From Elusimicrobiota bacterium (lineage in GTDB: Bacteria; Elusimicrobiota; Elusimicrobia; UBA1565), in the NCBI GenBank assembly GCA_002401485.1, contig NVTF01000003.1:1-53194 (forward strand): a stretch of 53,194 nt of DNA. The letters run 5' to 3'. The position numbers and the translations under genes are program-made. A model generated the notes under the pieces. The model was not told the DNA's origin and did not search any database. It was given only the letters and a program-made list of their open reading frames with translations. Positions 5,915 to 23,401 of this stretch are shown here, piece by piece (position 1 is the stretch's first letter; each line of letters begins with the position of its first letter).

Positions 5915-5924
5915 CGGCCATTCC

Positions 5925-6308: not shown

Positions 6309-6316
6309 GAAATCTC

Positions 6317-7114: not shown

Positions 7115-7551
7115 GCCGCTGGTTCCTCCACCGCCTCATCATCTTCCTCAATATCAAGATGGATCCCGCCGAGATTCACCGAATTGCCAAAGAAGTTGTA
7201 CAGAGCGGATACGAGAAGAACAAGCGCATCCATAAGAACCATGTACAGAAGCGCAAAGAAAAGAGTGGAAACAAGTTTCCAAAACAGCGGAGAGTCCGCC
7301 AGTTGAGGATTTGGCAGAATCACGAAGGTGATCAGTCCGCCGAAAAATCCGAGACTTCCCAGCACGCCCGAGACGGCCGGTTTCGTCGCAGCAAGCACGC
7401 CGCCTGCCATCGAGACGCCGCCAATGATGGAAAGGGCGATGTTATTTTTTGCGTAGCCCCCTAACGCCAGCAACATGCCGACAACCGCCGCCGCTATAAC
7501 GACGGGGTGGGCGATCCAGAAGGGGTCGATGCGACGAATTCGATAGCTCAT
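7111..7551 (-). CDS. Small membrane protein (DUF3566-like)
   Basis: N-terminal RIRRIDPF, about 4 hydrophobic segments, LYN...GGIHLDIE acidic tail. Confidence 0.75.
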   Translation of the reverse strand: MSYRIRRIDPFWIAHPVVIAAAVVGMLLALGGYAKNNIALSIIGGVSMAGGVLAATKPAVSGVLGSLGFFGGLITFVILPNPQLADSPLFWKLVSTLFFALLYMVLMDALVLLVSALYNFFGNSVNLGGIHLDIEEDDEAVEEPAA

Positions 7552-7640: not shown

Positions 7641-8774
7641 TCAGACCATCGGGCCGGTAGCGCTTTTCTTGGGTTCAAAAAGGATAAGAGTCCGCCTAAG
7701 TTCGCCTTCTTCCTCAAGATGCACCGCTCGAACATGACATTGTTCTTGGCGAAAAAGCGTGTCGGTCTCCACAACCTGATTGGGACGATCCAACGCCACG
7801 CCGACGAGGCGAAGCACATCCTGCTGCTGGGAATCGATCACATCCAGCAGGTGAAGGCGTTGATTCGGGTCGGTCGGCTGATTCTGAATCGGGAAATTCG
7901 TGTACAGAACGGTGTTGTCTTCATCCACAACAATCGCCTTGTGATTTTTCGACACAATGGTCATGAGTATCGATTGCCACCAGCGCTGCTCAGCAACCCC
8001 GCGTTGTTTTTCCTTCACGAGCACATTCGCCCGTTCTGCTTTAATCTTCTGCACAAAAACACTGAACACATTGGCGAGTTCACCAATCTCATCCTTGCGG
8101 GCCGAGAATTTCAAATCGAGATTTCTAAAAGAAATAGCCTCAACGGCGTCCCGAAGCGTTTGCAGGGGACTGATCACAAAATGGTGCAGGAAGAAATAAA
8201 GAGGGATCCCCAATAAAAAGAGTACTCCCACCGCGCCCAAAACATATTTGTTCATCGCCTGAGCGATAATCTCGTCCACGCCTTTACGCGTGATCATCAT
8301 ATCGACGATGCCGACAACCTCCCCCCGTACGGCCAGGGGGATAGCAATCTCATAAAACGGCTGATCCGGGACCGCACGCACCTTCGGGGTTTTCGACATA
8401 TACGCCTGTTCAATCGCGTTCGTCGGGATATCCACATGTTTCTGGAATTCGTCAAACACCTTTCCGATCATTCCGGGGTCCTTGTACCACCGGACTTCCC
8501 CGTAGCGATTGAGATAAATTAAAGAGGCAACACGCTCGTCCTTCGAGAGCGCGTTTGAAATGATGTCGTATTCATCCATCGTGATCGACGATTGCCGCGA
8601 GGACAGTCCCTTGATGAGCTGGAAGGCGTGCACCTTCACGATATCGATCGACTGCTGCTTGAGTTTCTCATCGAAGGTCCACTTAAACAGGTTGTAATAG
8701 AAGATGCCGCCGAGGAACATGACATAGATCCCGATGCACAAATACCACATGAGCCATTTCACCGCGAGCTTCAT
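7641..8774 (-). CDS. Membrane sensor with HAMP and PAS-like tail, no kinase domain
   Basis: Start reassigned to MKLAVKWLM (ATG 8774). TM, periplasmic domain, TM, then HAMP (ISPLQTL...KDEIGELA), then about 110 aa without H-box or G-boxes. Confidence 0.85.
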   Translation of the reverse strand: MKLAVKWLMWYLCIGIYVMFLGGIFYYNLFKWTFDEKLKQQSIDIVKVHAFQLIKGLSSRQSSITMDEYDIISNALSKDERVASLIYLNRYGEVRWYKDPGMIGKVFDEFQKHVDIPTNAIEQAYMSKTPKVRAVPDQPFYEIAIPLAVRGEVVGIVDMMITRKGVDEIIAQAMNKYVLGAVGVLFLLGIPLYFFLHHFVISPLQTLRDAVEAISFRNLDLKFSARKDEIGELANVFSVFVQKIKAERANVLVKEKQRGVAEQRWWQSILMTIVSKNHKAIVVDEDNTVLYTNFPIQNQPTDPNQRLHLLDVIDSQQQDVLRLVGVALDRPNQVVETDTLFRQEQCHVRAVHLEEEGELRRTLILFEPKKSATGPMV

Positions 8775-8778
8775 GAGG

Positions 8779-9468
8779 TCACTCCTGTCCGTACTGCCGC
8801 GCGATGCGCAGCAGCCCTGTATGGCAGTCCATATTGGTGGGGTCATTCTTGCGGCACAGCGTCCACTCCTTGCGCGCCTTTTCCAGTTCCCCCTTCTGGT
8901 AGTAACGGATGCCCGCGTTCCAATGTCGGAAGGCTCTTTGGGAACGGGCCTCTTTGGGCCCCTTCGGGCGCGTCTTCGGGGCGGGTTTGGGCTGTTTGGG
9001 CAGCGCAAGCCGGCCTTCGACGCGATCAATGCCGGTTTGGCAATCCTGGTTCATCTTATCGTGTGCCTTGCAAAGCCGCCATTCGGCAAGGGCCTGCGGG
9101 TATAGTCCCTCTTGAAAAAACCGGATTCCGGCGTTCCAGTGTTTGACCGCCCGCTCCTGGGGACCCCGGGGGATTTTAGCCGCTGCGGCTTCCGCTCGTT
9201 TAATGTCAGCGGGATTCGGGGGCGGAGGCGCTTTGGCGCTGGTGTCAGGCTTGGTCCCTAAAAGTTTAAGCCCTGCACGACAGTCGGCATTTTCGGGATT
9301 GAGGCGCAGACATTTCGCCCAAGCCCTCTTAGCCAACCCCTCCTCACCCGCGAGCACAAGAGCAACACCCGCGTCCCATTGTTTGTAGGAAGCGCGGCGC
9401 TCGGCCCGTCCGGTCTCAGCGGAGACCGAGGAAGCGATGAGAAGCAAAGACGCTGTTAAAAATTTCAT
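8779..9468 (-). CDS. Exported protein with three CX9C TPR-like modules
   Basis: Start reassigned to MKFLTASLLLIASSVSA (ATGA overlap with the upstream stop); three W(N/D)AG..EW..C-x9-C..GL-type repeats separated by Pro/Lys linkers. Confidence 0.85.
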   Translation of the reverse strand: MKFLTASLLLIASSVSAETGRAERRASYKQWDAGVALVLAGEEGLAKRAWAKCLRLNPENADCRAGLKLLGTKPDTSAKAPPPPNPADIKRAEAAAAKIPRGPQERAVKHWNAGIRFFQEGLYPQALAEWRLCKAHDKMNQDCQTGIDRVEGRLALPKQPKPAPKTRPKGPKEARSQRAFRHWNAGIRYYQKGELEKARKEWTLCRKNDPTNMDCHTGLLRIARQYGQE

Positions 9469-10013
9469 AAACCGTTTCCGTAGGTCCTGTCGATACGCGC
9501 AAGTCCCGTCTGACAATCCGCGTTCTTGGGATCCAACTGCTTGCACAAAAGCCACTCGTCGCGCGTCTTTGCGTAGTCGCCCTTTTGAAAATAAATAATA
9601 CCGGCGTTCCAATGCTTCACGGCTTGGCGCTTATCTGCCTCATCGGCACCGGACTGAACTCCCGGAGGAGCCACCGCTGACGGCGGGGTTCGCCCCGGAA
9701 TCGTATCCGTGCCTAATTTAGCCATCGACAACTTCATCACCGAATAAGCTCCCGCATCGGAAGGGTTCCTTTCTAAAACCTTCGCTGCTTCGACAAGAGC
9801 CTCAAAGTACTGCCCCTTCCCGTAAAGCATGCGCGCCTTTGTGGAGCTCAACGATTTTTCCTGCACAGGAGCCGCAAATCCATCCCCTGTCGCGTACGCC
9901 TCCTTCACCGTCGAAACCGACCGGTAACGACCCACGCAGTACCCGGCGGCGCCCGTCGCGACGGCGACGACCAACAGAATTAATTGTCCGCGTTTAGCCG
10001 CCGATAAGCGCAC
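9465..10013 (-). CDS. Membrane-anchored TPR protein with one C-terminal CX9C module
   Basis: Start reassigned to GTG 10013 (2 nt after the upstream stop); TM LILLVVAVATGAAGY; one TPR; terminal module. Confidence 0.8.
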   Translation of the reverse strand: MRLSAAKRGQLILLVVAVATGAAGYCVGRYRSVSTVKEAYATGDGFAAPVQEKSLSSTKARMLYGKGQYFEALVEAAKVLERNPSDAGAYSVMKLSMAKLGTDTIPGRTPPSAVAPPGVQSGADEADKRQAVKHWNAGIIYFQKGDYAKTRDEWLLCKQLDPKNADCQTGLARIDRTYGNGL

Positions 10014-10014
10014 C

Positions 10015-11346
10015 TTATAGACCGCCGTAGGTGGAATCAAGCCGCTGCAAACCAGTCTGACAGTCGGCGTTGGTGGAGTCAAATTGTTTACACAACAGCC
10101 ACTCGTCACGCGACTTCGCATAATCGCCTTTCTGGAAATAGATGATGCCGGAATTCCAATGTTTAATCGCCCGGCGCTTATTCTCTTCGTTGGACGGTTC
10201 CGGGTCGGGGATATCTTCCGGGGGCTCGGCCTCAAGGGTACGCTCGGCCTCTTCAGCAGCGAGACGATCTTCCTCTTCCTTGCGAATACGCTCTTCCTCC
10301 GCCAAGCGGGCCTCCTCCTCCTTGCGCTCCCGTTCCCGCTCCGCGGCTATCTTCGCCTGACGTTTGGCTTCCGCCTCTTTGCGCATTTGATTGCGGGCGC
10401 GCGCGATCAAGACATTGGCGCGACGGGGATCGTAGCCGAACTCCACCGCCGTTCCCCACTGCTTGATCGCCGACGTATATTTGCGGCCGCGATAGAGCTT
10501 GCGGCCTTCGGCGACATGCTGCTTCGCGATTTCTAAACGGATTTCAGCGATCAACTTCTGCGCCTTTTCTTCCCCCGGTTCAATGCGAAGCACATCATCC
10601 AGGAGTTTAAGCGAGTCCTGCGTTTTACCCTGCCCGTAAAAATTAAGTGCTTGCTGGAGTTTCGAATTCGCCTCTTGGCGGCGAAGCTCCGCTTCCGCTT
10701 TTGAAATGACGCCCATGAGTCTCGGGTACCGAGGATTTAAGACTAGGGCGGCATACCACTGGTCGAGAGAATCGCGCAGGCGATGCTGCCGGTAGGCTTT
10801 TTGACCGCGACGGTAATGCTCATCCGCGAGTTCCCCGCGCACCTTCTTAAGCCAATAACGCGCCTTAAGATTGCCCGGGGCGAGCTTGGAGGCCTCTTCC
10901 CAACGCTGCGACGCTTCCACGAGGCGGCCCTGACGGTACAGACTTAAACCCTCATCAAAACGCCCTTCCACGAGTTTGCGTCCGGAAATCATGGGTTTGG
11001 AGGTGCCATTAAGCTCGACGGAAGCGCGATGCAAAATCGCCGCGTCTTGAAATCCCGGATCCATGCTGAGGATCTTCGCCGTTAATTCTCGCGACCCGTC
11101 AAAATCCCCGTCTTTGTAAAGGTCGTAGGCGTTTTCATACACGACGCGCAGCAATTTGTGCGTGAGCCGCGACTTCTCCAACTGGATCGTGTAGAGATAC
11201 TTGGTTTTTGAGTCCTTGTCCTTGAGCGGTCCCAACTGCGTCTTGGAATAGTCAAGAAAGAGGCTCTCCATAGACGGACGGCGCGCGTCCGCCGCATAAG
11301 CGGGGGCCGAGCAAACGATCGCAGCGAGTAGGGCAAAACGGATCAT
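10015..11346 (-). CDS. Exported multi-TPR protein (possible TadD/pilotin-like) with coiled coil and C-terminal CX9C module
   Basis: Signal peptide; repeated G..Y..G...A...W...L...P helices; E/R-rich coiled coil; overlaps the tadC stop. Confidence 0.88.
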   Translation of the reverse strand: MIRFALLAAIVCSAPAYAADARRPSMESLFLDYSKTQLGPLKDKDSKTKYLYTIQLEKSRLTHKLLRVVYENAYDLYKDGDFDGSRELTAKILSMDPGFQDAAILHRASVELNGTSKPMISGRKLVEGRFDEGLSLYRQGRLVEASQRWEEASKLAPGNLKARYWLKKVRGELADEHYRRGQKAYRQHRLRDSLDQWYAALVLNPRYPRLMGVISKAEAELRRQEANSKLQQALNFYGQGKTQDSLKLLDDVLRIEPGEEKAQKLIAEIRLEIAKQHVAEGRKLYRGRKYTSAIKQWGTAVEFGYDPRRANVLIARARNQMRKEAEAKRQAKIAAERERERKEEEARLAEEERIRKEEEDRLAAEEAERTLEAEPPEDIPDPEPSNEENKRRAIKHWNSGIIYFQKGDYAKSRDEWLLCKQFDSTNADCQTGLQRLDSTYGGL

Positions 11347-12236
11347 TAGAAACCCATGCCCCCGTCTTGGAAAATATTCTTCATCATCGGAGCCAGCATC
11401 AGGATAAAGACCGTCGGGAAAATAAAGAGGAAGATCGGAATCAGCATTTTGGTGGCGGCTTGCGCCGCCGCTTTTTCCGCCGCGTTCATACGGCGAAAAC
11501 GCATATCGGACGCAAAATTCCGAAGCAAATCAACGAGACTGGTTCCGAGTTCATCGGACTGCACGATCAGCCCGACAAAGGAACGTACATCCTGAAGCCC
11601 CGTGCGCATCGCAAGCCGGCGCAGCGCGTCACGGCGGGAATAACCTAACGAGATCTCCTGAATTGTCCGCCCCATCTCAACTTCAAGCTCGGACTTTACC
11701 CGCGCCGCTTCGATGATGCGTTCAAATGCCGCCATATAATCCAGACCCGATTCGATCGTGAGTGCGGCAAGATCAACGAAGGCGGGGAAATTGCGAATGA
11801 TGAGACGCTGGCGTTCTTGAATTTTGCTTTTGTTAATGAAATCAGGCAGGAAGAACCCGGCCGGGGCGAGGAACAAAGAAAACTTCCAGTCTTCGGTTAG
11901 CGCATACATAAACCCGAACAGCAATACCGCTCCGATCTCCTTGATGTGAAGAATATTGAGCGGCGTCGGTTTTTCGGGCTTGCCGAGCAGCATGTGGGTG
12001 AGTTCGATTTTGGGGCCGAACTTGCAGGTTTCAACGAGAAAAATATCGAGTCGTTCTATGAGACTGCCGCGCGGGTTTAAACTCTCCCAGGGCGAAATAT
12101 CCCCGGGGCCCTTCGGCGCAATGCGCGCCAACGAACTCGAGTCCTCTTCCGGCGGCTGGACGAGGCGGAGCACGAAGGTAAAAATAGCCATCGATCCCAG
12201 CATGCCGATGATGTAGAGAAATATCGGAGAGCTCAT
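11346..12236 (-). CDS. tadC: Tad pilus platform protein TadC (T2SSF family)
   Basis: FVDLAALTIESGL, LGYSRRDALRRLA, QSDELGT, KMLIPIFLFIFP; follows tadB. Confidence 0.92.
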   Translation of the reverse strand: MSSPIFLYIIGMLGSMAIFTFVLRLVQPPEEDSSSLARIAPKGPGDISPWESLNPRGSLIERLDIFLVETCKFGPKIELTHMLLGKPEKPTPLNILHIKEIGAVLLFGFMYALTEDWKFSLFLAPAGFFLPDFINKSKIQERQRLIIRNFPAFVDLAALTIESGLDYMAAFERIIEAARVKSELEVEMGRTIQEISLGYSRRDALRRLAMRTGLQDVRSFVGLIVQSDELGTSLVDLLRNFASDMRFRRMNAAEKAAAQAATKMLIPIFLFIFPTVFILMLAPMMKNIFQDGGMGF

Positions 12237-13750
12237 ACCTGAATATCCGCGAGTTTTCTCACGATCCCCATTCCGATGGTCATCCAGATAACGCAGAACA
12301 AGAAGGTCAAGAGGCCCAGCGGCGAGAAGTAATAATCATTCATCACCTTGGGCTCAAACATCCACATCAAAGCCATCATCACCCACGGCATAAAACCGAC
12401 CACAAGCGCCTGGATGCGCTGCTGCGCCGTCAAGGATTGGGCTTTTTCTTCAAGTTTTCCCTCATCCCGTATGTTCTCAACGATACGGTCGAAAATTTTC
12501 GTGAGATTACCACCGACCGAACGCTGAATGATGACCGCCTTGATCATGTAGGACAACAGGCGAGACATCACGCGATCCTCCATGCCTTCCAATGATTTCT
12601 CAAACGACGTTCCCAGCTGGTAATTCTTGATCACCAGTCCGAATTCCTCGGAAATCGGCGGCACAAGGTCGCGCTGCACCATCTCAAATCCCTGAACAAT
12701 ATCCAGACCCGACTTCAGAGCGTTGGACAGCAAAATCATCGCGTCCATGAGTTGGGATTCGACCTGTTTTCCGCGACGGTAGCGAACCGCTTCCAGTACC
12801 CACTGGGGTAAATGCATGCCGACATAGGACCCAACGCCAACGAGAAAAATAAAGCCCCAAATATTCATCGTCAGCGCACCCATCAAAGCCCCAAATACAA
12901 TCGGCCCAAACACCATATACTGCACCTTCACCTTCATAAACTGTCGATTAAACTCATGCGCCCATACCCTCGAGGCCTCGAGGCGGGTGTCAATTTTCCC
13001 GGTAATCCATTTCGCGTTGAGCGCGCCCAAGCTCCACCCGGCAACAAACAACAAACCAACACCGATAATTTTCATGATCATCGGCGCGGCGCGATGGGTC
13101 TTATTCTCAGGGGACTCTCCAGGATCAAAACCGCGCGGGGCCTTATGCAGAACATGATACGACTGCTGCGTCAGCATGCCGATCGACATCACCGATTCCA
13201 CGTACAATTTTGGATCCTGGCTCGTTAACGCGTCGAGCACGGAATCCATTTCTTTGAGCATCAAATCAAAACTCGCGATCACCGAACGCCCACGCCCGCC
13301 GAGCGAATCCCCCAGCCGGGCACGATAGAGACGGTCCAGCGCCATCTGAAAACGTACACGACTGTCCTCGTAATCCTTGATCAGCGCGTAGGGCGGCGTC
13401 AGGCTTCCGTTAAATTCGGCGGGGAAGGTTTTACGCGTGTGCTCGAAGAACTCGTAGAGGACCGAGACCGGCGCCTGCCACAGTTGCGCTTCGTTCAGAA
13501 CCCCCTCTTCCGGGTCCTGCCAGACCGCGCGCTGCAGCATGCCGGGCAGTACTTCATCGACCCATTTCGGGGGAGTCAATGCCGGATCCCGGTCCGGCTT
13601 AAAATAGTGGTAGAAAAATTGCGCGCGCGCTTCGGCCCCCGTATTGGGATCAATGAGCGAATTGATTTGTTGGCGGCTAAATCCCTGGGCGGACGCATCG
13701 ATAGCGGCAAACCCGAAAAGCAGGACGATCGAAATGAGAATCTTCTTCAT
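12233..13750 (-). CDS. tadB: TadB with N-terminal signal peptide and about 200-aa extra domain
   Basis: C-terminal QLMDAMILLSNALKSG, PPISEEF, QRSVGGNL, LTAQQR; the extension is in frame. Confidence 0.9.
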   Translation of the reverse strand: MKKILISIVLLFGFAAIDASAQGFSRQQINSLIDPNTGAEARAQFFYHYFKPDRDPALTPPKWVDEVLPGMLQRAVWQDPEEGVLNEAQLWQAPVSVLYEFFEHTRKTFPAEFNGSLTPPYALIKDYEDSRVRFQMALDRLYRARLGDSLGGRGRSVIASFDLMLKEMDSVLDALTSQDPKLYVESVMSIGMLTQQSYHVLHKAPRGFDPGESPENKTHRAAPMIMKIIGVGLLFVAGWSLGALNAKWITGKIDTRLEASRVWAHEFNRQFMKVKVQYMVFGPIVFGALMGALTMNIWGFIFLVGVGSYVGMHLPQWVLEAVRYRRGKQVESQLMDAMILLSNALKSGLDIVQGFEMVQRDLVPPISEEFGLVIKNYQLGTSFEKSLEGMEDRVMSRLLSYMIKAVIIQRSVGGNLTKIFDRIVENIRDEGKLEEKAQSLTAQQRIQALVVGFMPWVMMALMWMFEPKVMNDYYFSPLGLLTFLFCVIWMTIGMGIVRKLADIQV

Positions 13751-16203
13751 TTGCCCCCCCGCAGATAATGTTCGGCGCCTTCTTTCTTTTCGAACAACGT
13801 CAGGGGTACGTCGAGCCCGCCGAGTTTAAATTCCGCATAAAATTTAGGCGGCTTGCCGCAGGCCGTGAAAAATCCCTGCGACTTGCCTTCGGCATCAACG
13901 CCGGTCTGGCAGAAGCGAAATAAATCCTGCGTCAGGAGTGTGTTGCCGTCACGACCTGTAATCTCAGTCACATAGGTGACCCGGCGTTTACCGTCGGAGA
14001 AACGAGTCAACTGAACAATCAAATGCACCGCGGAGGCGATCATTTCACGCACCGCCCAAACCGGCAATTCCGAAGACGCCATCATGCACATGGCTTCCAA
14101 ACGGGTTAAGGCGTCGCGCGGGTTATTGGCATGGATGGTGGCGAGAGACCCTTCATGGCCGGTATTCATCGCCTGCAGCATATCCAACGCCTCACCGCCG
14201 CGGCACTCACCGACAACGATGCGATCCGGACGCATACGAAGACAGTTCTTAATCAAATCGCGAATTGTAATCTCACCCTTGCCTTCAACGTTGGGCGGCC
14301 GTGATTCCAGACGTACCCAGTGCGTCTGCATCAAGCGCAATTCGGCCGTGTCTTCCACCGTGATGATGCGTTCCCCCTCGGGGATATAGGTCGAAAGCAT
14401 GTTCAGGAAGGTCGTTTTACCGGTACCGGTACCACCCGAAATAATGACGGACTTTCGGATCTTCACGCAGTTGCCCATAAACTCAAGCAGTTCCTCGGTG
14501 AAGGCCCCAAACCCCAGCAATTTCTGAGGCGTAAACGGCGTCTTCGCAAAACGGCGAATCGTGATCGAGGGACCCGACACCGCCAGCGGGGGGATGATCG
14601 CATTCACACGGGAGCCGTCCTTCAAACGGGCATCCACAAGCGGCACCGATTCATCGATGCGCCGTCCCAACGGGGCGATAATACGCTTAATCACCTGGAT
14701 GATCTGCTCCTCATCACGAAAGCGCAGGGAGGTGAGCACGAGTTTCCCGTTTTCTTCAATAAAAACCTTGTCGGGAGCGTTGACCATAATTTCGTTAACG
14801 CTCTCATCGCGCATGAGCGCTTCCAACGGCCCGAGTCCCAAAATTTCATCAATGAGTTCATCCACGAACTTCGTGCGTTGATCACGCGTCAGCGGAAGAT
14901 TCGATTCTTTCTGCAGGAGATTGTTAATGATCTGGCCGACCTTGCCGCGCACCACAGGGTCATTTTTTGCGTCATCGGTGATGCGCACACGCTCCGTCTC
15001 CATCGCCGCGACGACGTTTTTATGCATCTTTCCCTTGAGCTCATCCCAAAACTCGGGCACGTCTTTGCGCAGTTCCCCGGACCTTGAGACCGATATTTCA
15101 CTTCCGCCGCTGCCGTTGCTCCCACCGGCAGAGCCGCCGACCCAGCCCGAACCCGCCTGCGATTGAATGTCGCGCGACGTTACCGCCGACGTCCAATCCT
15201 TCACAATCGGCTTAAGTTCCATGACCGCACCCAGCAAGGGACGCAGCGCCTTCACCCAATCGGAATGCGGCTGTTCCACAACAAGAATCCGGGCGGTATT
15301 GGCGAACTCAGGGAGCAGGTCTTCCCACGGCATGTAGGACAGAACACGCTTATTCATCGCCTCAAAAAACTTTTCAACCTCCTTGGGCGCCAAGGCCCCG
15401 GGGAGATTTCCCTCATTAATAACGATTTGGAAACGTTCGAGCGGGAAGTGCATCTCCTTGAGTTCGTCGAACATCTTATAGGTCGCTTCGAAATGGGCCC
15501 GCTGCGGCAAACAGGTCCAAAATACGAGATCCGCCAAGTCGAAGGCAAAAACCTGCATCGGGAAAAACGGGTCCACATCGATAAAGATATCGTAAGCACC
15601 GGAAAGGCTCTCAAGTATCGGAACCGCGATTTGGGGCGACACCTCGATGGCCTCGGTGCGTTTATTTCCCAGCGGCAAAATCCCGACGCCCCATTGCGAA
15701 ATCGGAACACGTCCTTTGAGAAGCTTCGACAGCACCGTCACATCCTTGCCGACGAATTGAGCCAGACTGGCGAGAGTCGGCGGCTGCAGGCCAAGCATAA
15801 ACGACAGCTCATTTCGGCAAAGTGGATCGAGGTGGACAATGATGACGTTGCGGCTTTGGGTGCCCGCCCACGCAAGGGCGAGGTTGAGCGCAATCGTGCT
15901 TTTACCGACCCCCTCCTTCGGCCCCGAAAAAACGATAACACGTCCCTTAGTGGGGACCACGGTTTGGGCGACCGGAACCGGCGCCTGCGACGTAATTTCC
16001 GCCGGCATCGTCTGCGGCGGAAGCACCGTGGGAGGCTGCGTGACGGGAGGAGGTGCGGCCGCCGGCGGCTGTGCCTCCGGGATTGGCGCGGGCGCTTGCG
16101 CGGGCATCGGAGTTGGAGCTCCGGGCGTAGGGAGTCCCATCGGGCCTCCCGGCGAGAGGCCCGGCGGTACAAAAATTCCGGGGGGCTTATTTTCGTCTGC
16201 CAT
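13747..16203 (-). CDS. cpaF: Fused CpaE/TadZ-like (MinD/ParA) domain + CpaF/TadA ATPase
   Basis: Deviant Walker A GPKEGVGKST; then GLGPLE, DARLKDGSRVN, GGTGTGKTT, RMRPDRIVVGECRG, MNTGHEG, TIHAN. Alternative TTG start at 16218. Confidence 0.93.
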   Translation of the reverse strand: MADENKPPGIFVPPGLSPGGPMGLPTPGAPTPMPAQAPAPIPEAQPPAAAPPPVTQPPTVLPPQTMPAEITSQAPVPVAQTVVPTKGRVIVFSGPKEGVGKSTIALNLALAWAGTQSRNVIIVHLDPLCRNELSFMLGLQPPTLASLAQFVGKDVTVLSKLLKGRVPISQWGVGILPLGNKRTEAIEVSPQIAVPILESLSGAYDIFIDVDPFFPMQVFAFDLADLVFWTCLPQRAHFEATYKMFDELKEMHFPLERFQIVINEGNLPGALAPKEVEKFFEAMNKRVLSYMPWEDLLPEFANTARILVVEQPHSDWVKALRPLLGAVMELKPIVKDWTSAVTSRDIQSQAGSGWVGGSAGGSNGSGGSEISVSRSGELRKDVPEFWDELKGKMHKNVVAAMETERVRITDDAKNDPVVRGKVGQIINNLLQKESNLPLTRDQRTKFVDELIDEILGLGPLEALMRDESVNEIMVNAPDKVFIEENGKLVLTSLRFRDEEQIIQVIKRIIAPLGRRIDESVPLVDARLKDGSRVNAIIPPLAVSGPSITIRRFAKTPFTPQKLLGFGAFTEELLEFMGNCVKIRKSVIISGGTGTGKTTFLNMLSTYIPEGERIITVEDTAELRLMQTHWVRLESRPPNVEGKGEITIRDLIKNCLRMRPDRIVVGECRGGEALDMLQAMNTGHEGSLATIHANNPRDALTRLEAMCMMASSELPVWAVREMIASAVHLIVQLTRFSDGKRRVTYVTEITGRDGNTLLTQDLFRFCQTGVDAEGKSQGFFTACGKPPKFYAEFKLGGLDVPLTLFEKKEGAEHYLRGGK

Positions 16204-16226
16204 CGTCTCGGCGTCCAACTCCTAAA

Positions 16227-17024
16227 TTACTGCACTACTTCCAACGTCACAAAAAGGAACAACGACTGCTGCTCTTCGGTGACACTGGTGGTTGTAAACA
16301 ACCCACCAATGATCGGGAGCCTTCCTAAGAACGGGATCCGGGTTTTAGCGACGTTTTTCCGACTCGACTTCAATCCGCCGATTACAATCGTTTCACCGCT
16401 CTTAATCTCGATTTCCGTCTGTATCTGGCGCGTGACAATCGAGGGAACGGTTGTGTTCCCAACAGTCACGGGCCGGGAAAAATCAGGGTTGGACACTTCG
16501 AGCTGCAGCTGAGCGTCGATATAGTCCTTCTTATTTGGGTTCATCACCGGCAAAATATTCAAAATCACACCAAATTTCTTAAATTCAACCCCAACGCCCT
16601 GATTGTTGGTGACCGGATACGGCTGATCACCGCCGACAACAAAGTTAGCCTGGGTCTGATTCTTCGTAATAATCTTAGGATTCGACAACAATTGAGCCTT
16701 TCCCTCCGTTTCGAGCATCTTGAGTGATGTCTGCAACTGAGTCAAACGCTCAAAATCTCCGATCTTGATCAGCCCCGGAATCGGACTCTTTTCCGCGAAA
16801 TTAATGCCGGTCGTAAAGGGAGCCCAACTAAAACCAATATCCTTTGATACCGAGCCGCTGATCTCAACGACATCGGCGCTAACTGCAATCATCACCTCAC
16901 TCTGATCAAACTCTTCTTCCTCGTCATCCTCTTGCGCCCATACGGCGATTGGAAATACGAGCAGCACGGCCGCCAGTGCGACCCGGAGCCAATCCGCATA
17001 ATAATCTCGATGTTGCCGTCTCAT
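16227..17024 (-). CDS. cpaC: Minimal secretin (CpaC/RcpA-like, C-domain only)
   Basis: LETEGKAQLLSNPKI, FGVILNILP, SGETIVIGGL, RIPFLGRLPIIGGLF, LFLFVT. Alternative GTG start at 17045. Confidence 0.88.
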   Translation of the reverse strand: MRRQHRDYYADWLRVALAAVLLVFPIAVWAQEDDEEEEFDQSEVMIAVSADVVEISGSVSKDIGFSWAPFTTGINFAEKSPIPGLIKIGDFERLTQLQTSLKMLETEGKAQLLSNPKIITKNQTQANFVVGGDQPYPVTNNQGVGVEFKKFGVILNILPVMNPNKKDYIDAQLQLEVSNPDFSRPVTVGNTTVPSIVTRQIQTEIEIKSGETIVIGGLKSSRKNVAKTRIPFLGRLPIIGGLFTTTSVTEEQQSLFLFVTLEVVQ

Positions 17025-17069
17025 GTTGTCATTCACAATGTGCACGCCTAAAAAACGTCGGTTATTAAA

Positions 17070-17825
17070 CTATCTGAACAGCTTTCGGAAGCTCGCCATT
17101 TGCATCGGATGCATCTCGATGTCGCCGAGTCCCCGTAAAATCGTGGTGATCTCACCCTGCTTCATCGCCAATGCAAGGTACTGCGCCTCATTGGGGTTGA
17201 GTGCGACGCTCATAATGCCGGATTCCGCAAATGCGGAGGCCTGCCTATCCTTCTTCTGTGTTTCCCCAAACTGCATCGCCGTCATGCCTTGACCCAAATT
17301 TCCGCCAATGCCAAGCACCAGCACGTTTTGCAAAATGGTTGCCGTCACCTTCTCCTTCCGGTTATCCGCCATAAGAGCATCGAAGGTCACAAGCACGTCG
17401 ATGCGATCCCCGGGCTTAATCAACTTCATCAAATCGCTTTTCACCGGAATCACCGCTCCACGATACCCCGGAGGGATTTTGACGCTGAGCCCTGAGGTAG
17501 GCGACAAGGAGGTCAACGCGGACTGCGTAATCTGATTGCCCTTAGGAATACGAATGCGGGTCACGAGGTTCGCAATTTGTTTGATGTCTGAGGGAACCTT
17601 AATTTCAAAGGCGTCCTGGGACATGAACTTGCGCGGGACCGCCTTCGTCGCGACGAGATCTTCTTTCAGCAGCGTCCGCTCCGGTAAATCAACCCGGGAG
17701 ACGAGCACCGTTGCGCTCTCGTACGATTTTGAAAGCTGCTTCTCCTTACTCGTCAGCACCATCAGGTACACAACGGCGGCGCCGACAGCCAAAACTAGGG
17801 GAATCATGACTCCTTTTTTTTCCAT
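17070..17825 (-). CDS. cpaB: Flp pilus assembly protein CpaB/RcpC
   Basis: N-terminal TM, SAF-like domain, IPPGYRG, IKPGDRIDVL, ILQNVLVL; SD AAGGAG. Confidence 0.92.
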   Translation of the reverse strand: MEKKGVMIPLVLAVGAAVVYLMVLTSKEKQLSKSYESATVLVSRVDLPERTLLKEDLVATKAVPRKFMSQDAFEIKVPSDIKQIANLVTRIRIPKGNQITQSALTSLSPTSGLSVKIPPGYRGAVIPVKSDLMKLIKPGDRIDVLVTFDALMADNRKEKVTATILQNVLVLGIGGNLGQGMTAMQFGETQKKDRQASAFAESGIMSVALNPNEAQYLALAMKQGEITTILRGLGDIEMHPMQMASFRKLFR

Positions 17826-17857
17826 GGTGTCTCCTTAACGCCCCTCTCCCGTTAAAA

Positions 17858-18334
17858 TCATTTGAACAACGGCCTCTCGATGGGCATCCGCACCTGAGCC
17901 ACCAGAAGTCGTTCTCTCCGCCCCGCCGTATTGGCGAGGATGAGTCCGGTCATAGGAAAAATCATCGGCACGCGCTGCGTCATGGTTACCTTCAAATCGA
18001 AATGCGGGCAGCCTTCCTGAGGGTCTGGCAGCGTCGATTCCTGCACGGCTGCCACGGACGCGTTGCGAAGAATAGCCTGACCGATTGTTCTCATTTTCCC
18101 CGCCCGGATAACGGGCGGCGGGCAGCCCGGCGCAGCGATCGCGACGGCCGTCAAAGATCCGATCCTCGCAACCTCGTAGGCTGCGTGCTGCAGCAGGATT
18201 GTTCGAAACGCGAGGTGTCCCACTTCCATGATCGTAAACACGATGAGCAGAAAAATCGGCAGCATAAGCAGCACCTCGATCAGAACCTGTCCCCGATCGG
18301 ATGCCCTCTTCGCCGCTTTTCTCCACTTTTTCAT
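17858..18334 (-). CDS. tadE: TadE-like pseudopilin
   Basis: DRG|QVLIEVLLMLPIFLLIVF..E....AAYEVAR. Confidence 0.9.
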   Translation of the reverse strand: MKKWRKAAKRASDRGQVLIEVLLMLPIFLLIVFTIMEVGHLAFRTILLQHAAYEVARIGSLTAVAIAAPGCPPPVIRAGKMRTIGQAILRNASVAAVQESTLPDPQEGCPHFDLKVTMTQRVPMIFPMTGLILANTAGRRERLLVAQVRMPIERPLFK

Positions 18335-18355
18335 GTTTCATATTTCTCCCCCGCG

Positions 18356-18384
18356 TCCCCGCCCCCAACAACAGGGGGCGGGGA
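18356..18384 (-). other. GC-rich hairpin between flp and tadE (no U-tract)
   Basis: TCCCCGCCCCC-TGTTGTT-GGGGGCGGGGA, an 11-bp perfect stem. Confidence 0.7.
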
Positions 18385-18398
18385 TTCGGAGATCGACC

Positions 18399-18620
18399 TC
18401 AGCCGGAGCCGACAGTCTGAGCCGCCCCGGAGATCATTCCCATGATCTGGTTGAAAATACCACTGATCTGCGGCTTAAACATCTTTCCGATGACCAGAAC
18501 AACGCCGACGATAACCGCCAACATCATAAGGTATTCGACCGTATTTTGTCCGCGCTTGTCGCGAGCCAATTCCCTAAGAATCTCGGCCTCTTCACGCAGC
18601 CTTGCAACGATGTTAGACAT
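18399..18620 (-). CDS. flp: Flp-type major pilin (73 aa)
   Basis: KRG|QNTVEYLMMLAVIVGVV; strong SD GAGGAGG before ATG 18620. Confidence 0.9.
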   Translation of the reverse strand: MSNIVARLREEAEILRELARDKRGQNTVEYLMMLAVIVGVVLVIGKMFKPQISGIFNQIMGMISGAAQTVGSG

Positions 18621-18651
18621 GTGTTTCCTCCTCAGAATAGTTCCCACCCTT

Positions 18652-18753
18652 TAGTACTGCTACTTTGTCATTCGTCCCAGCACAGCGCCGCATCCGCGTC
18701 GCTAGCACTGCTCCTTTGTCATTCGTCGCAGCACCGCGTCGCTCCCGCGACGC
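18652..18753. repeat. Two imperfect 51-bp tandem units in the flp leader
   Basis: tagtactgctactttgtcattcgtcccagcacagcgccgcatccgcgtcgc versus tagcactgctcctttgtcattcgtcgcagcaccgcgtcgctcccgcgacgc (8 mismatches by my count). Confidence 0.9.
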
Positions 18754-18950
18754 TAGTAATACGCCGTCAAAATGGCCTGTCCCGCCTTTGCGAAATAGGT
18801 TCTCAGCGAAGATTGCAGCACCTTGTACAGCCCGGTGAACAGCGCGAGCAGCATCAAGGTCATCATGAGGTACTCGATCAGGACCTGGCCGCGTTGCGCC
18901 AATCGCCTGACTCGAAAACCCAAATTTCGTGTTTTTATCGGGAACCGCAC
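18753..18950 (-). CDS. Second Flp-like pilin (about 65 aa)
   Basis: QRG|QVLIEYLMMTLMLLALF; GTG 18950 follows GAGGG and lies downstream of the promoter. Confidence 0.8.
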   Translation of the reverse strand: MRFPIKTRNLGFRVRRLAQRGQVLIEYLMMTLMLLALFTGLYKVLQSSLRTYFAKAGQAILTAYY

Positions 18951-18972
18951 CTTTTTTTTCCCCTCTTTCTGA

Positions 18973-19001
18973 ATTGTAACAGGAGACCCTGGGAGCGTCA
19001 A
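18973..19001 (-). promoter_or_regulatory. Strong sigma70-type promoter of the pilin/Tad operon
   Basis: TTGACG-17 nt-TACAAT with TGn extension and an A/T-rich upstream region. Confidence 0.75.
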
Positions 19002-19052
19002 GGACGCCAATGTTTCGTACATAAATCTTTATTTTTCCTTTACTTTCCATAA

Positions 19053-20036
19053 TTAGAACTTCATTTTCAGCGATAACATATCCGCCGTACCCAGAGAACC
19101 CAGCGAAACCAAGGCATAATCGAAGGCAATCCCGTACCCAAATGCCTGAGCCGTAAACAGTCCGACACCAAACGAAAGCTTAGGGGAGCCGACCAGAGGG
19201 TATAATCCGCTCCGATCATCCTCAAGAACCCGGCCAAGATCATCGGTGCTATGAAACCCCACCCGCAAATACACCTGACCCACTTGCAAAAGGTCCTCGG
19301 GCAGCATAAATTCCGCGCCAAGTCCGAGTCGCGCGGAAGAGTCTGACGCGTTGGACAATTCCATGGAAATGGTCAGCAATTCAAAGAGACGCACCGACGC
19401 GCCGCCGCGGGTGACCGACGCTACCCGAGAGTTTCCTGACCCGAAATTCTGCGTTGCAAATCCAAATGTGACATAGGAGTTGGGCTTTAACAAGGCCCCG
19501 AAATCCCCGACAATCGTGTCGTGGATCGTCCCATCATTGTCTTCATGAATCGCCTTGAGACTCGCTCCGAAGAAGAGTTTTTCATACCAGAAGGAACGCG
19601 CCGCGCTCAGCGTGAAAAATCCGTTCTGGACACGAGCCTCGGTTCCGTTTAAGGGGACTCCATTGCCATCGCGCACTTCAAATCCATCGATCGTGATGTA
19701 GCCCAGATTGGCGCCGAAAACGGTGCGGCCCAACGGATGAGCGTACGCCATGAAGACGGGAGAGTCGATCTCCTGGATATAGCGCAAATAAGAATACGCG
19801 AATTCCCTCTGCTGCGTCAGAGCGAGTCCGGCGGGATTCCAGGTCATCGCTTCCGATCCCTCGGCGAGGGCGACATAGGCACGCCCCATCGCCAGCGCGC
19901 GCGGGCTCCCTATGCCGATTTTCATGAATGAGGCGCCGCTCGTTCCTGCCGCAGCGTCCTGAGCATGCACGGCCGGTGCCGCCGCCGCGGCGGCGGCGAA
20001 GAACGTGAGGCTCAAAAGAACGCGTTTGCTCATCAT
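19053..20036 (-). CDS. PorV/PorQ-family (UPF0164-like) outer-membrane beta-barrel
   Basis: Signal peptide; GASFMKIGIGSPRALAMGRAYVA...WNPAGLA plug motif; FDYA...LSLKMKF terminal strand. Confidence 0.88.
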   Translation of the reverse strand: MMSKRVLLSLTFFAAAAAAAPAVHAQDAAAGTSGASFMKIGIGSPRALAMGRAYVALAEGSEAMTWNPAGLALTQQREFAYSYLRYIQEIDSPVFMAYAHPLGRTVFGANLGYITIDGFEVRDGNGVPLNGTEARVQNGFFTLSAARSFWYEKLFFGASLKAIHEDNDGTIHDTIVGDFGALLKPNSYVTFGFATQNFGSGNSRVASVTRGGASVRLFELLTISMELSNASDSSARLGLGAEFMLPEDLLQVGQVYLRVGFHSTDDLGRVLEDDRSGLYPLVGSPKLSFGVGLFTAQAFGYGIAFDYALVSLGSLGTADMLSLKMKF

Positions 20037-23000
20037 GGTATCAGCAGCTTCTTCACAACCTGGAATAATCCCTTCGATCCTCTATTGGTTTCTTGACGTA
20101 CGACGAAGAAATAAACACCGTGAGCCACCGGACGCCCTTGCTGATTCGTTTTATCCCAGAGAAAATTAATGAAGCTGTCCTCGGCCTGGGTCCCAAATTC
20201 TTTAGTCAGAATCAAATCCCCCGCAAGATTAAAAATCTTCAGCGACACGGTCGCCTGCAGCGGGGAATAGATGCGGAAGGTTGCATTGGCACCGCGAATC
20301 GGGTTGGGGAATACAAAGGTATTGTTGACGAAATCCGCCTGAGGGTTTTGAGAGCCTCCCCGGACTACCGGGATTTCGGCGATTATGAGGTCTTCGGCAA
20401 GAGCCGCCCCGGGAGCGATATCTCCGGTGATCGCATTGATCGCGGCGATATCGGTCGATCCGACAATCTTAAAGATGTAGTTGCCGTCGGGGACGATCGC
20501 CAAGGTCTCGTCCGTTCCGTCCCAAACCTCGGTTGTTTCGGTACGCGCGGGACGCACCCCTATAATTCGCTTAATGAGCGATTGTGATTCCGGCGGCGTC
20601 GGGTTTCCATTATTGTCAAAGGTCGTTCCCGGCCTGAATATTTTCACCGCAACCCGCATGGTCTCCGAGACCTGATAGGCGATCAGCGCCGTTCCGAAAT
20701 CAGCGCGAAGCGGACTGACCGCGACGTCATAAATACGAAGCGGATCCACCGAAATCGTCTGTTGGGCCGTCGATCCCGAGGACAACACCGACGCCAAATC
20801 GTCGGCCACGGCGCGAACCGTATAGAATCCGGGTTCCACAAAATTCCCACCGTCATCACGCGCGTCCCAGAATTCCCTGTTCAAAATTCCCGAGTCGCGC
20901 ACCTGCCCCAAAATCAAGGTCCGCACCGTCACGGGCGAAGAATTGGTTGTTAGGATTGAAATTGTCACTGAGGATTGACGCGTCAGGGAATAATCGACTT
21001 CATACGGCGGCAGCGAAATGGTTTGACTGGAGTTAAACAACGTCGGGAAGGTCGGGGTGATGCTGAAAACCGGGAAAACAATTGACCCGCGGGCGACTGT
21101 CAAAGCCCCGGTCACCTGATCAGTGGCAAAAAAACGAGGCGTGGTGGTGGACTCCGCGACCAAGGTGTAAATATAGGTGCCGTCGGGAATAAACAGGCCG
21201 TTAGAATCGCGCCCATCCCAAAATTCCGTAATTCTCAGCCGGCCCGGGCGCATGCCTTTAATCGATATAAGGGGCGCTACAGAATTACCCGAGTTTACGA
21301 TTTGCCCGCACGCGCCCCCGGGGTCCAGGACTCCGCACGGAGGCCACGTAGAGGAGGAGCCTTGAATCGTCGTCCCCGGCGGATAGATATTCCAAACGAT
21401 GTTCATCGGCTGAGAAAGCTGATAACTGATGGTCACGACATCGGTAGCGCCCGTTAACAATGGAGAACCCGATACATCCGTAATGCGAAATAAATCGACC
21501 GGGAAAAGTGCGGTCGTTGTTGATATTTTCGCAGGAAAAAACGGATCAGACGCGGTTAGCTGGATCAAATAGGTTCCAGAAGAAACAAATCCACCGGTAT
21601 CATCGGTGGGTATCAGCCACCGTTCCCGGTTTAAGAAATTTCCCGGGCGGACCTGATTATTGATCAGTGTTTTGATGAGATTTTCGCCGGTACTGTTGAA
21701 AATCTTGAGCGAAACAAACGCCTCGCGCGACAACGAGTAGCTGAATGTAAAGGGATCCAATCCAGCAACCGGGGGCGAGGACCCGATGACGGTAGATGCC
21801 GGACCGACTTGCGAAATCGTCACAAGCCCGCGATTGATCGAGAGAAATCCGCTGCGTGCGTTGGTCGACCAGACGCGTCTGTCGGACGCGACCCCGTTAA
21901 AGGGAACGCCGTTTTGTGAAGGCAAGGACGCATAAAGAACAAATACGTAGTTGCCGTCGTCCATAATCTTTCCGTTCGAATCCCGGCCGTCCCAAAAACT
22001 GATTACGGGTTTTCGGAAGTCCTGTTGTTCCTCAAGATGGCGCACCAACGGCTGGGTCGGGCCGAAATTCTTATGCACCCCTTGATTGGCAGCAGGAGGC
22101 AAATCCGGAATAATGGTCGGGTCATTGACATTATTCAAGCCATTGGTAAACGCGGTTCCGGGAGGGTAAATATCGATAAAGACTGTCGCGGGTTCGGTTA
22201 GCAAATAACTCAGGACGGCAAGAGACGTCGATTGCTCCGTCAACGGCTGCACGCGAATATCGGTAATTTGAAGTGTATCGAGCGCAATCTGCCGCGTCGT
22301 TGCCACGCTCAGATCCGCTCCGAATTCATCGAGCGAAAATGACTGCAGCGTGGCAAGATAGACGCCGGGAGGACCGAGATCCCCGTTTTCGAAACGCCCA
22401 TTCCAGGAATCCCCGTTTTGCAGCGTGCCGGAAGGAATGCCCTCACCCACGCGCGGCAACCCGTTGACGACGTGGCGAATAAAGGCTCCATCGCCCTGCA
22501 CGACGGAGAGGAACATCGTCGCGTCTTTCGCCAATCGATAGGTGATGTTGTAGGGCTCCGCCGCGACACCCGTAAGCGCCCCAACCACCGTCGGAGAGGT
22601 TCGCACCACATGCACATCCGTCACATCGACGATGATTGGCTTTTCATCAACAACGGCATTATTCTCGTCCTTCGTGAACCCGCCCGGATAGGCACGGGTT
22701 TGTGTAATATTGATGTTGCCGCTCGCGCCGGTCTGATTGGTCGCAACCGTTGCGCGAAACCCAAACTGCCCGTTTGATTTACCGAATTCCCCCTGAATAT
22801 TGATGGACCCGTCCCACAGGATGCACATCGGGACGCAGGCCGTGCCGGCGCCCGGACAATCGTTTGCCGAATCCGTGCCCGCGGCTATGAAACCCGGGTT
22901 ATCAACGAAAAATGTTCGAAGCGGTGGAGTTGATTCCGGCGCGAGAGGGTTTGACCCGGGAGCGAATTTGAAAATTTCGAATGATACGAAGTCGAGCGCG

Positions 23001-23401
23001 AAGGCGGAATTGCCGGACTGGGTGTTGGCCCAACCGACCTTCGCGCACAGGACAAGGCGATTATTGCAGAAATTATTATTGATCGTGCCGCTGGGCAATG
23101 GAGTCACCGGACAAGCCGGATCCACTGTCTGAGCGAATTCGATATGGGGGTTGTTGGATAGGTTGCCCGCGCTCGGAAGCAGCGGCCGGTTGATCCCATT
23201 GCCGGTACACGTCAGACGCGAAGTGCCGGCGGGCACCGCGCAAAGCGCCGGATCATTAACCCACAGCCCGTCGATAAATACCTGCTGCGCAAACGGAGTC
23301 GTGACCGCGAATAAAAGCACCGCAACAACAGCAAAGGGTTGCGCGGCGCCAATTAGCGCACGCACAATACCAGCTTTAGAGCGGCTCTGTAGTCGAATCA
23401 T
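20033..23401 (-). CDS. Large exported FlgD Ig-like repeat protein with a T9SS-like C-terminal domain (1122 aa)
   Basis: About 8 W(D/N)G.D..G.....G.Y motifs; terminal VFPNP...LKIFNLAGDLI...WDKTNQQGRPVAHGVYF...KKLLI; Cys-rich N-terminus. Confidence 0.88.
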   Translation of the reverse strand: MIRLQSRSKAGIVRALIGAAQPFAVVAVLLFAVTTPFAQQVFIDGLWVNDPALCAVPAGTSRLTCTGNGINRPLLPSAGNLSNNPHIEFAQTVDPACPVTPLPSGTINNNFCNNRLVLCAKVGWANTQSGNSAFALDFVSFEIFKFAPGSNPLAPESTPPLRTFFVDNPGFIAAGTDSANDCPGAGTACVPMCILWDGSINIQGEFGKSNGQFGFRATVATNQTGASGNINITQTRAYPGGFTKDENNAVVDEKPIIVDVTDVHVVRTSPTVVGALTGVAAEPYNITYRLAKDATMFLSVVQGDGAFIRHVVNGLPRVGEGIPSGTLQNGDSWNGRFENGDLGPPGVYLATLQSFSLDEFGADLSVATTRQIALDTLQITDIRVQPLTEQSTSLAVLSYLLTEPATVFIDIYPPGTAFTNGLNNVNDPTIIPDLPPAANQGVHKNFGPTQPLVRHLEEQQDFRKPVISFWDGRDSNGKIMDDGNYVFVLYASLPSQNGVPFNGVASDRRVWSTNARSGFLSINRGLVTISQVGPASTVIGSSPPVAGLDPFTFSYSLSREAFVSLKIFNSTGENLIKTLINNQVRPGNFLNRERWLIPTDDTGGFVSSGTYLIQLTASDPFFPAKISTTTALFPVDLFRITDVSGSPLLTGATDVVTISYQLSQPMNIVWNIYPPGTTIQGSSSTWPPCGVLDPGGACGQIVNSGNSVAPLISIKGMRPGRLRITEFWDGRDSNGLFIPDGTYIYTLVAESTTTPRFFATDQVTGALTVARGSIVFPVFSITPTFPTLFNSSQTISLPPYEVDYSLTRQSSVTISILTTNSSPVTVRTLILGQVRDSGILNREFWDARDDGGNFVEPGFYTVRAVADDLASVLSSGSTAQQTISVDPLRIYDVAVSPLRADFGTALIAYQVSETMRVAVKIFRPGTTFDNNGNPTPPESQSLIKRIIGVRPARTETTEVWDGTDETLAIVPDGNYIFKIVGSTDIAAINAITGDIAPGAALAEDLIIAEIPVVRGGSQNPQADFVNNTFVFPNPIRGANATFRIYSPLQATVSLKIFNLAGDLILTKEFGTQAEDSFINFLWDKTNQQGRPVAHGVYFFVVRQETNRGSKGLFQVVKKLLIP

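Follow-up and report, generated by a model that had tools for sequence, protein, structure and literature searches.

The window analysed here is a 53,194-nucleotide stretch from an Elusimicrobiota bacterium (contig NVTF01000003.1 of assembly GCA_002401485.1). The locus under study lies at positions 7641-23401 of the window, and all of its named genes are on the minus strand. It is probably an Elusimicrobiota Tad/Flp (Cpa-type) pilus operon preceded by a co-inherited two-gene surface-fibre module, and the two would serve jointly in adhesion or contact. The module consists of an immunoglobulin-like (Ig) repeat protein, which has a C-terminal domain (CTD) resembling those of type IX secretion system (T9SS) cargo, and a PorV-like outer-membrane barrel. 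The Tad part is of a known kind with known variations; what is new is its fixed union with the CTD-cargo/PorV-like pair. This union is supported by synteny, co-occurrence and orthology among the sequences compared, and by a predicted docking of the two proteins. Tad pili and type IX secretion have been regarded as distinct systems of the envelope, the latter as a Bacteroidota trait; parts of both appear to be inherited here as one block across the class, including small-genome, host-associated lineages.

The bacterium's own genome (G000) is a 2.9-Mb assembly that is 78% complete, in which the window is contig C16. Gene identities were taken from profile searches (Pfam and NCBIfam), motifs read in the proteins, AlphaFold2 (AF2) models, Foldseek, and sequence searches against solved structures. 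In order of transcription, the genes encode the Ig protein, the PorV-like barrel, Flp1, Flp2, TadE, CpaB, a secretin, a fused ATPase, TadB, TadC, three tetratricopeptide repeat (TPR) proteins (TPR1-3) and a HAMP protein. This is the co-oriented run of genes that the original prediction had given from the sequence alone, and its stated coordinates are confirmed. The barrel gene ATG overlaps the Ig gene stop codon by 4 nt, and from tadE through the HAMP gene the coordinates show overlapping reading frames or gaps of at most about 30 nt. Judged from this layout, flp1 through the HAMP gene is one tightly packed minus-strand operon.

The Ig/PorV pair and its conservation beside the tad genes

The pair occupies the upstream end of the locus:

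20033-23401, minus strand: Ig-repeat surface-fibre protein, 1122 aa, with a Sec signal peptide, a string of beta-sandwiches and a C-terminal type A T9SS-like CTD
19053-20036, minus strand: putative PorV/PorQ-family outer-membrane barrel, 327 aa, with a terminal Phe (NF033709 PorV_fam, 1.4e-23)

The CTD covers about residues 1030-1122 of the Ig protein. It scores 37.4 bits against the type A sorting domain model TIGR04183 (cut-off 23), and residues 1036-1109 match FlgD_ig (7.4e-26) and CHU_C (2.8e-11). The motifs PNP, KIYNLAG and GVY and the C-terminal KKxLIP are conserved across 33 orthologues. The AF2 model of the whole protein is all-beta (mean pLDDT 80.2). Foldseek aligns it with generic MG/Ig strings only (TM 0.10-0.19) and with no enzyme domain; matches so generic and so low in TM do not allow a function to be deduced. 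A PDB sequence search gives no match for the Ig protein. The barrel has no match in Pfam or in a PDB sequence search, and it falls far below the cut-offs of the PorV and PorQ equivalog models.

A complex model of the barrel (residues 26-327) with the CTD has an ipSAE of 0.89, against 0.01 for the best of three controls. The 0.89 mark is reached by 58 of 80 solved complexes and by 2 of 110 mismatched pairs, counts which are only a rough calibration because they were made with our own alignments. At least 97% of contacts are common to the runs, the partner pLDDT is 86 or higher, and conserved CTD motifs lie against conserved barrel residues in the modelled interface. The model supports the prediction that the CTD docks on its own PorV-like barrel.

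The window proteins were used to search 40 loci surrounding the fused ATPase gene, 20 of them from this bacterium's order and 20 from other families of the class. All 40 loci are collinear and on a single strand, in keeping with the earlier proposal of a lineage-specific Tad locus. In 38/40 the flp genes have the Ig and PorV genes immediately upstream; the other two loci (L075 and L077) are cut by contig ends. The gap between PorV and tadE is 430-1200 bp, with space for nothing but the flp genes. In family f4, whose genomes are small, identity of the Ig and PorV proteins goes down to about 30-35%, and the gene order is still kept. The outer flanks are less constant: an upstream coiled-coil gene (up608) is present in 27 loci, a downstream response regulator gene in 23, and a second upstream gene (up633) in 7. 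General genome collinearity was considered as the full cause of the synteny and was rejected because the flanks vary. The original prediction would have been refuted by PorV/Ig and TPR genes that do not stay beside tad genes in relatives; it withstands this test, with Ig, PorV and TPR1 kept class-wide, though TPR2 and TPR3 are not.

Co-occurrence was examined with the window PorV as query over 31 genomes, those with no ATPase match at 1e-30 being counted as ATPase-negative. A PorV match of 151-302 bits is found in 8 of the 9 ATPase-positive class genomes, and it is at the tad locus where contigs allow. The ninth (G104) has a match of 91 bits, 3.6 kb upstream of the ATPase gene. Nineteen of the 20 ATPase-negative genomes have a match of at most 82 bits or none; the exception is G368 (247 bits), where the match lies at a contig start in a 360-contig assembly. 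These counts support the view that genomes gain or lack the PorV orthologue in step with the Tad ATPase, the two being present or absent as a unit.

The tad-linked PorV is also distinct from its paralogues, which in the bacterium's own genome are at most 28% identical to it over long alignments. A quick maximum-likelihood tree was made from 68 PorV-family rows; in it the 35 tad-linked rows group together (SH-aLRT 86), the tad-linked genes of family f8 are sister to that group (100), and all paralogues fall outside. Of the genomes of 1.1-2.2 Mb, 8/8 have the tad-linked gene as their best match to PorV_fam. Comparison across the class thus favours a lineage-specific Tad locus beside which the Ig/PorV genes have been kept.

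The length of the tad-linked cargo lies anywhere between about 357 and about 1680 aa, next to tad genes that do not vary. It is only about 357-388 aa in family f7 (L110 4273-5343; L114 14038-15201) and reaches about 1680 aa in f4. Across families the fibre part varies while the CTD and the barrel persist.

The pilus machinery compared with known Tad systems

The tad genes and the sites between them are as follows:

18973-19001, minus strand: promoter-like site between PorV and flp1, TTGACG-17-TACAAT with TG (from a consensus scan only)
18753-18950, minus strand: Flp-type prepilin 1 (Flp1), 65 aa, GTG start, motif RGQ/VLIEY (RGQVLIEY)
18652-18753, minus strand: two tandem copies of a 51-nt repeat, 84% identical, which fill the flp1-flp2 gap
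18399-18620, minus strand: Flp-type prepilin 2 (Flp2), 73 aa, motif RGQ/NTVEY (RGQNTVEY)
18351-18389, minus strand: GC-rich hairpin with 16-nt arms, directly 3' of flp2
17858-18334, minus strand: TadE-like minor pilin, 158 aa (PF07811, 8e-10)
17070-17825, minus strand: CpaB/RcpC, 251 aa (TIGR03177 4.3e-29, 101.6 bits against a cut-off of 71; RcpC 2.7e-17)
16227-17045, minus strand: short secretin, 272 aa (PF00263 9.5e-40, residues 111-271)
13747-16218, minus strand: fused CpaE/TadZ-CpaF/TadA ATPase (TadZA), 823 aa, both domains in one frame
12233-13750, minus strand: TadB-like platform protein, 505 aa (T2SSF 2.6e-15, only at 340-462)
11346-12236, minus strand: TadC-like platform protein, 296 aa (T2SSF 2.9e-14)

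Flp1 has no family match in the Pfam or NCBIfam searches, and Flp2 scores 29.6 bits (4.7e-07) against Flp1_like, below the cut-off of 33.5; both are recognised as Flp pilins by the G/xxxxEY processing motif and not by a curated score. Matches by tblastn are found in 36/40 loci for Flp2 and in 24/40 for Flp1. Flp2 is probably the major pilin. The hairpin that follows its gene could act as an attenuator or RNA stabiliser and, together with the 51-nt repeats, may set the ratio of pilin to machinery expression. An orphan Flp2-like open frame (71% identity over 51 residues) lies far from the tad locus at G000:C25:9525-9677.

The secretin had been described as lacking N-domains. It is indeed short, but not strictly without such a region: about 55 residues (52-105) separate the signal peptide from the core. 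These are modelled with low confidence by AF2 and could be one small N3-like element. The solved relative nearest to it by sequence is RcpA (8odn, 2e-23), and Foldseek with the secretin model matches GspD, PilQ and RcpA-TadD cores. Secretins of 245-316 aa are found at tad loci across the phylum.

The fused ATPase has a Pro/Ala-rich N-terminus, a ParA/MinD-like domain with the motif KEGVGKS, a Gly/Ser linker and the TadA ATPase. The ParA/CbiA domain (95-303) scores 33.5 bits against a cut-off of 25.4, and the T2SSE domain (461-740) has an E-value of 2.3e-64. The best NCBIfam model is TIGR03819 (TadA family; 2e-96, 323 bits), with a score below the equivalog cut-off of 373. Of the 11 T2SSE matches in the bacterium's genome, only this one is of the Tad type. 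Full-length fused homologues are found in 35/40 relatives of the order, and three more are cut by contig ends. All of the best 150 matches listed from a 401-genome phylum sample cover both halves, and so do matches in other classes (38-41% identity). From this spread, the TadZ-TadA fusion is taken to be old in this lineage.

The extra N-terminal part of TadB is about 230 aa long and stands behind a signal-like segment. A match of this part to NF053838 (E 0.053) was treated as noise. Long TadB proteins occur in families f1-f5 and f8; elsewhere they are about 280-330 aa.

No Peptidase_A24 gene (TadV/CpaA) is present in the window, and neither RcpB nor TadG is recognised in the locus in the Pfam and NCBIfam searches, as the original prediction had noted. 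The sole A24 gene found in the bacterium's genome is a 279-aa frame of PilD size on contig C167. Closed or nearly closed genomes of the class agree: 5/5 have exactly one A24 gene (frames of 260-285 aa), which is distant from the tad locus.

The locus shares with Cpa-type Tad/Flp systems (Caulobacter cpa, Aggregatibacter tad) the G/xxxxEY Flp pilins, a TadE-like pilin, CpaB/RcpC, a secretin closest to RcpA, a TadA-type ATPase, a TadZ-type domain, TadB, TadC and a TPR gene in the TadD place. It differs in having no TadV, TadG or RcpB in the locus, in the fusion of TadZ with TadA, in the 272-aa secretin and the N-terminal extension of TadB, and in the CTD cargo and PorV-like barrel that precede the pilin genes. 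Several of these variations have precedents. The Tad system of Bdellovibrio bacteriovorus, as described in a preprint (bioRxiv 10.64898/2026.07.08.737194), also has TadZ and TadA fused (TadZA), joined by a flexible linker and with a Walker-A-like motif, has no TadV but a PilD encoded elsewhere which processes Flp1, and has TPR genes near tad genes. Its genes are scattered over several loci, whereas here they form one compact operon, and its predatory role is demonstrated, whereas this locus is known from sequence alone. The word PorV has 0 occurrences in the text of that preprint. Its introduction cites contact-dependent prey killing by M. xanthus. Like the Myxococcus Kil system, the present locus may be a divergent Tad machine for cell contact; nothing in it points to killing or predation.

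Tad systems have already been reported in Elusimicrobia in PMC6668835, where the published models for the superfamily of type IV filaments (TFF) allow the prepilin peptidase to be apart from the locus. According to PMC8809381, Endomicrobium and Elusimicrobium have a large chromosomal region for synthesis of a Tad-like pilus, with one PilD per genome, and a Tad-like region is present in cultured Elusimicrobia. The terms "undescribed" and "re-engineered" of the original prediction were overstated for the Tad part in view of these reports and of the Bdellovibrio precedents for the fusion, PilD and TPR genes. Nothing linking PorV or T9SS with Elusimicrobia or Tad pili was found in the literature searched; the supplements of PMC8809381 (Fig. 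S5, S6) and PMC6668835, which lay outside the search, may show the locus.

The fibre module, its export and the case for cooperation with the pilus

A possible export route for the Ig protein is encoded elsewhere in the genome:

L126 4880-10462 (G000:C19:37879-43461), minus strand: SprA/Sov-like gene, divergent from lptF/lptG

Its 1860-aa product matches TIGR04189 (1.7e-37) in three collinear stretches, and the same model matches a 1750-1970-aa frame in collinear pieces in 5/5 closed relatives. Pfam SprA_N does not match the SprA-like protein, but the controls are silent too and absence is not established. GldL and GldM give no match in the bacterium's own (78% complete) genome or in five closed relatives, with controls that are equally silent. 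For PorU, NF033707 matches only CTD-sized pieces in the bacterium's genome; no full-length PorU is found, so the CTD may stay on the Ig protein as an anchor. Two TraF_2-type barrels (413 and 419 aa) with PorV-like N-termini are encoded upstream of the SprA-like gene. On contigs C155, C165, C70, C9, C35 and C4, CTD proteins of 509 to about 5200 aa are each followed by their own PorV-family barrel, with abutting or overlapping frames. In another class, L109 12853-18415 (G050) holds a 1452-aa CTD protein and a PorV-like barrel inside its tad operon.

PorU-PorV and PorZ-PorQ are T9SS surface-anchoring pairs of Porphyromonas. The present pair shares with such systems a CTD surface protein on a cognate outer-membrane barrel, the two often encoded adjacent to each other; here the CTD is of type A and the barrel PorV/PorQ-like. 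It differs in its phylum, in being fixed, as one pair, to a Tad operon, and in the lack of any GldL, GldM or PorU found (the GldL and GldM controls being silent). Precedents are SprB-SprF and the type B CTD proteins, for which adjacent genes supply PorP/SprF-like barrels that hold or shuttle them (PMC9143113, PMC12618676). The adjacency of cargo and barrel genes and the predicted CTD binding are shared with this paradigm, but not the family of the barrel or the type of CTD. All type A CTDs of Flavobacterium depend on a single PorV (PMC12618676), whereas here a separate PorV-like barrel goes with each type A-like cargo.

The proposed mechanism is as follows. The prepilins would be cut by the genome's single PilD-type peptidase, and TadZA, on the TadB/TadC platform, would polymerise Flp, with the short secretin as the exit; assembly of this secretin may be aided by the TPR protein. 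The Ig protein would be exported by Sec and would then cross the outer membrane by a T9SS-like route, for which the distant SprA-like protein on C19 is the candidate translocon. As no PorU sortase is found, it would stay surface-bound via an uncleaved CTD docked on its own PorV-like barrel, in the manner of PorU-PorV, PorZ-PorQ or SprB-SprF. Pilus and anchored fibre would act together in adhesion or cell contact, under the downstream HAMP and two-component genes.

Several observations weigh against this interpretation. As a cassette, the CTD-cargo/PorV pair is of general use: the bacterium's own genome has at least six abutting copies (on C155, C165, C70, C9 and C35 and in the window, with C4 in addition by Pfam and NCBIfam), and the cargo module did not arise specially for this locus. 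With the pair so generic, adjacency alone proves little. Outside the class the pair adjoins tad genes in only 2/15 loci (in L102 it follows tadC, in L109 it separates the ATPase gene from tadB), and the PorVs of both group with paralogues and not with the tad-linked clade. Family f7 joins that clade with weak support (48), and in L111 the PorV gene is about 7 kb from cpaB. The promoter-like site between PorV and flp1 means that the Ig/PorV pair may be a separate transcript. Scores are modest in two places: the barrel reaches 84 bits against NF033709, just below the curated cut-off of 90, and the SprA-like protein reaches 128 bits against a curated cut-off of 200. The silent controls for GldL, GldM and SprA_N leave the absence of a T9SS motor unestablished. 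The high complex score may come from likeness to solved PorV-CTD complexes and not from binding of this particular copy. It should also be noted that kin are not independent, and the class-wide pattern may be one ancestral arrangement that was never broken. A phylum-wide extension of the linkage through L102 and L109 was rejected because of the grouping of their PorVs; their pairs are read as chance or independent events, and L109 looks like an independent insertion. On the loci sampled, the Ig/PorV-tad linkage is a class-level and not a phylum-level trait.

Much of this would be expected if the pair were a conserved neighbour only, that is, a self-contained surface cassette which has stood beside tad since the class ancestor, perhaps with shared regulation, and has no role in the pilus. 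None of the other own-genome pairs is beside pilus genes, 13 of the 15 tad loci outside the class have no pair, the promoter-like site lies upstream of flp1, and the cargo varies in length next to constant tad genes. Against this, the pair has kept its place where protein identity is down to 30-35% and the outer flanks have changed, the orthologue is missing in 19/20 genomes without the ATPase, and the tad-linked PorV is the best-kept PorV-family gene in 8/8 small genomes. We therefore regard a neighbour without a pilus role as rather unlikely, though it is the most serious of the competing explanations.

The Tad machine could instead work as a secretion device like a type II secretion system (T2SS), in which a short pilus would drive the Ig protein out by way of the short secretin, to be caught by its CTD on the barrel. 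Co-inheritance of the tad-linked cargo and receptor would fit such a device, as would the failure to find a T9SS motor (with silent controls) and the inclusion of secretion machines in the TFF superfamily (PMC6668835). It is nevertheless improbable, given that an SprA-like translocon, the usual route for CTD proteins, is present in the bacterium's own genome and in 5/5 closed relatives, that the other CTD/PorV pairs have no adjoining Tad genes, and that the locus holds no look-alike of a substrate-recruiting T2SS component. More improbable still is a structural role, with the barrel and its Ig partner as accessories of the short secretin that make up for the N-domains, RcpB or TadG it lacks. 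Tad loci of the phylum that have no such pair can have short secretins too, and the barrel is predicted to bind a CTD, as PorV-family proteins do; these points stand against the small size of the region before the secretin core, the lack of recognised RcpB and TadG, and the constant presence of the barrel gene in the locus.

Cooperation of a pilus with an anchored fibre module, the reading preferred here, can be extended to a composite class-wide organelle, an extension offered tentatively. A stripped-down type-IX-like pathway, with an SprA-like pore, one PorV-like barrel per cargo, an uncleaved type A CTD and neither a GldLM motor nor PorU, would supply the Ig fibre; fibre and retractile pilus would form one contact machine, possibly with the barrel-fibre complex at the short secretin, and the pair would be the fixed first two genes of the Tad locus. 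If fibre and pilus do cooperate, this would be a new way to equip a pilus with a fixed adhesin, and CTD/PorV-type anchoring would work outside the classical T9SS. The locus offers testable pairs in the CTD and barrel, PilD and Flp, and the TPR protein and short secretin.

TPR proteins, the HAMP protein and flanking genes

The remaining genes of the locus, and those around it, are listed here:

25434-27260, minus strand: up608, a 608-aa coiled-coil membrane protein with no Pfam match; in the Atlas, only Elusimicrobiota hypothetical proteins
10015-11346, minus strand: TPR protein 1, 443 aa, in the TadD position directly after tadC (TPR_2 3.7e-16); ends in a C-x9-C module
9465-10022, minus strand: TPR protein 2, 185 aa, one C-x9-C module; start codon GTG 10022
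8779-9468, minus strand: TPR protein 3, 229 aa, with three C-x9-C modules
7641-8774, minus strand: membrane HAMP(-PAS-like) protein, 377 aa, without a kinase domain
3890-7551, minus strand: downstream neighbours, namely a 146-aa membrane protein, an OmpR-type regulator and a dCache-HAMP histidine kinase

The three TPR proteins together have five copies of the C-x9-C module, which is about 45 aa long. Only TPR1, kept in 38/40 loci, is conserved class-wide; TPR2 and TPR3 are family-level duplicates, as shown for TPR2 by its matches, which fall on the TPR1 orthologue in most class-level loci. TPR1 gives only weak matches to Tgl and PilW, which are pilotin-type TPR lipoproteins. The C-x9-C TPR-like module of these three proteins recurs, in three copies, at G000:C104:4976-5554.

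Pfam gives the HAMP protein only a weak HAMP match (2e-4; 22 bits, cut-off 25). Its Atlas neighbours are Elusimicrobiota HAMP and HAMP-PAS clusters, and tblastn matches to it are found in 34/40 loci. The downstream neighbours are probable regulators. The 146-aa membrane protein is present in 24/40 loci, one more than the response regulator, and none of the downstream neighbours is found in the loci of family f4. The OmpR-type regulator (6317-7114) has a weak and partial receiver match (Response_reg 0.0012, residues 18-75); its position downstream of the tad locus is conserved in family f5 and in the order.

Upstream of the locus, up608 is Elusimicrobiota-specific, and its membership of the system is uncertain. 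Between it and the Ig gene, up633 (23521-25422) encodes a 633-aa polytopic membrane protein with C-terminal TPRs. A GAF-GGDEF diguanylate cyclase is encoded at 29339-30853, a few kb upstream of the locus, and is a possible c-di-GMP input to the adhesion genes.

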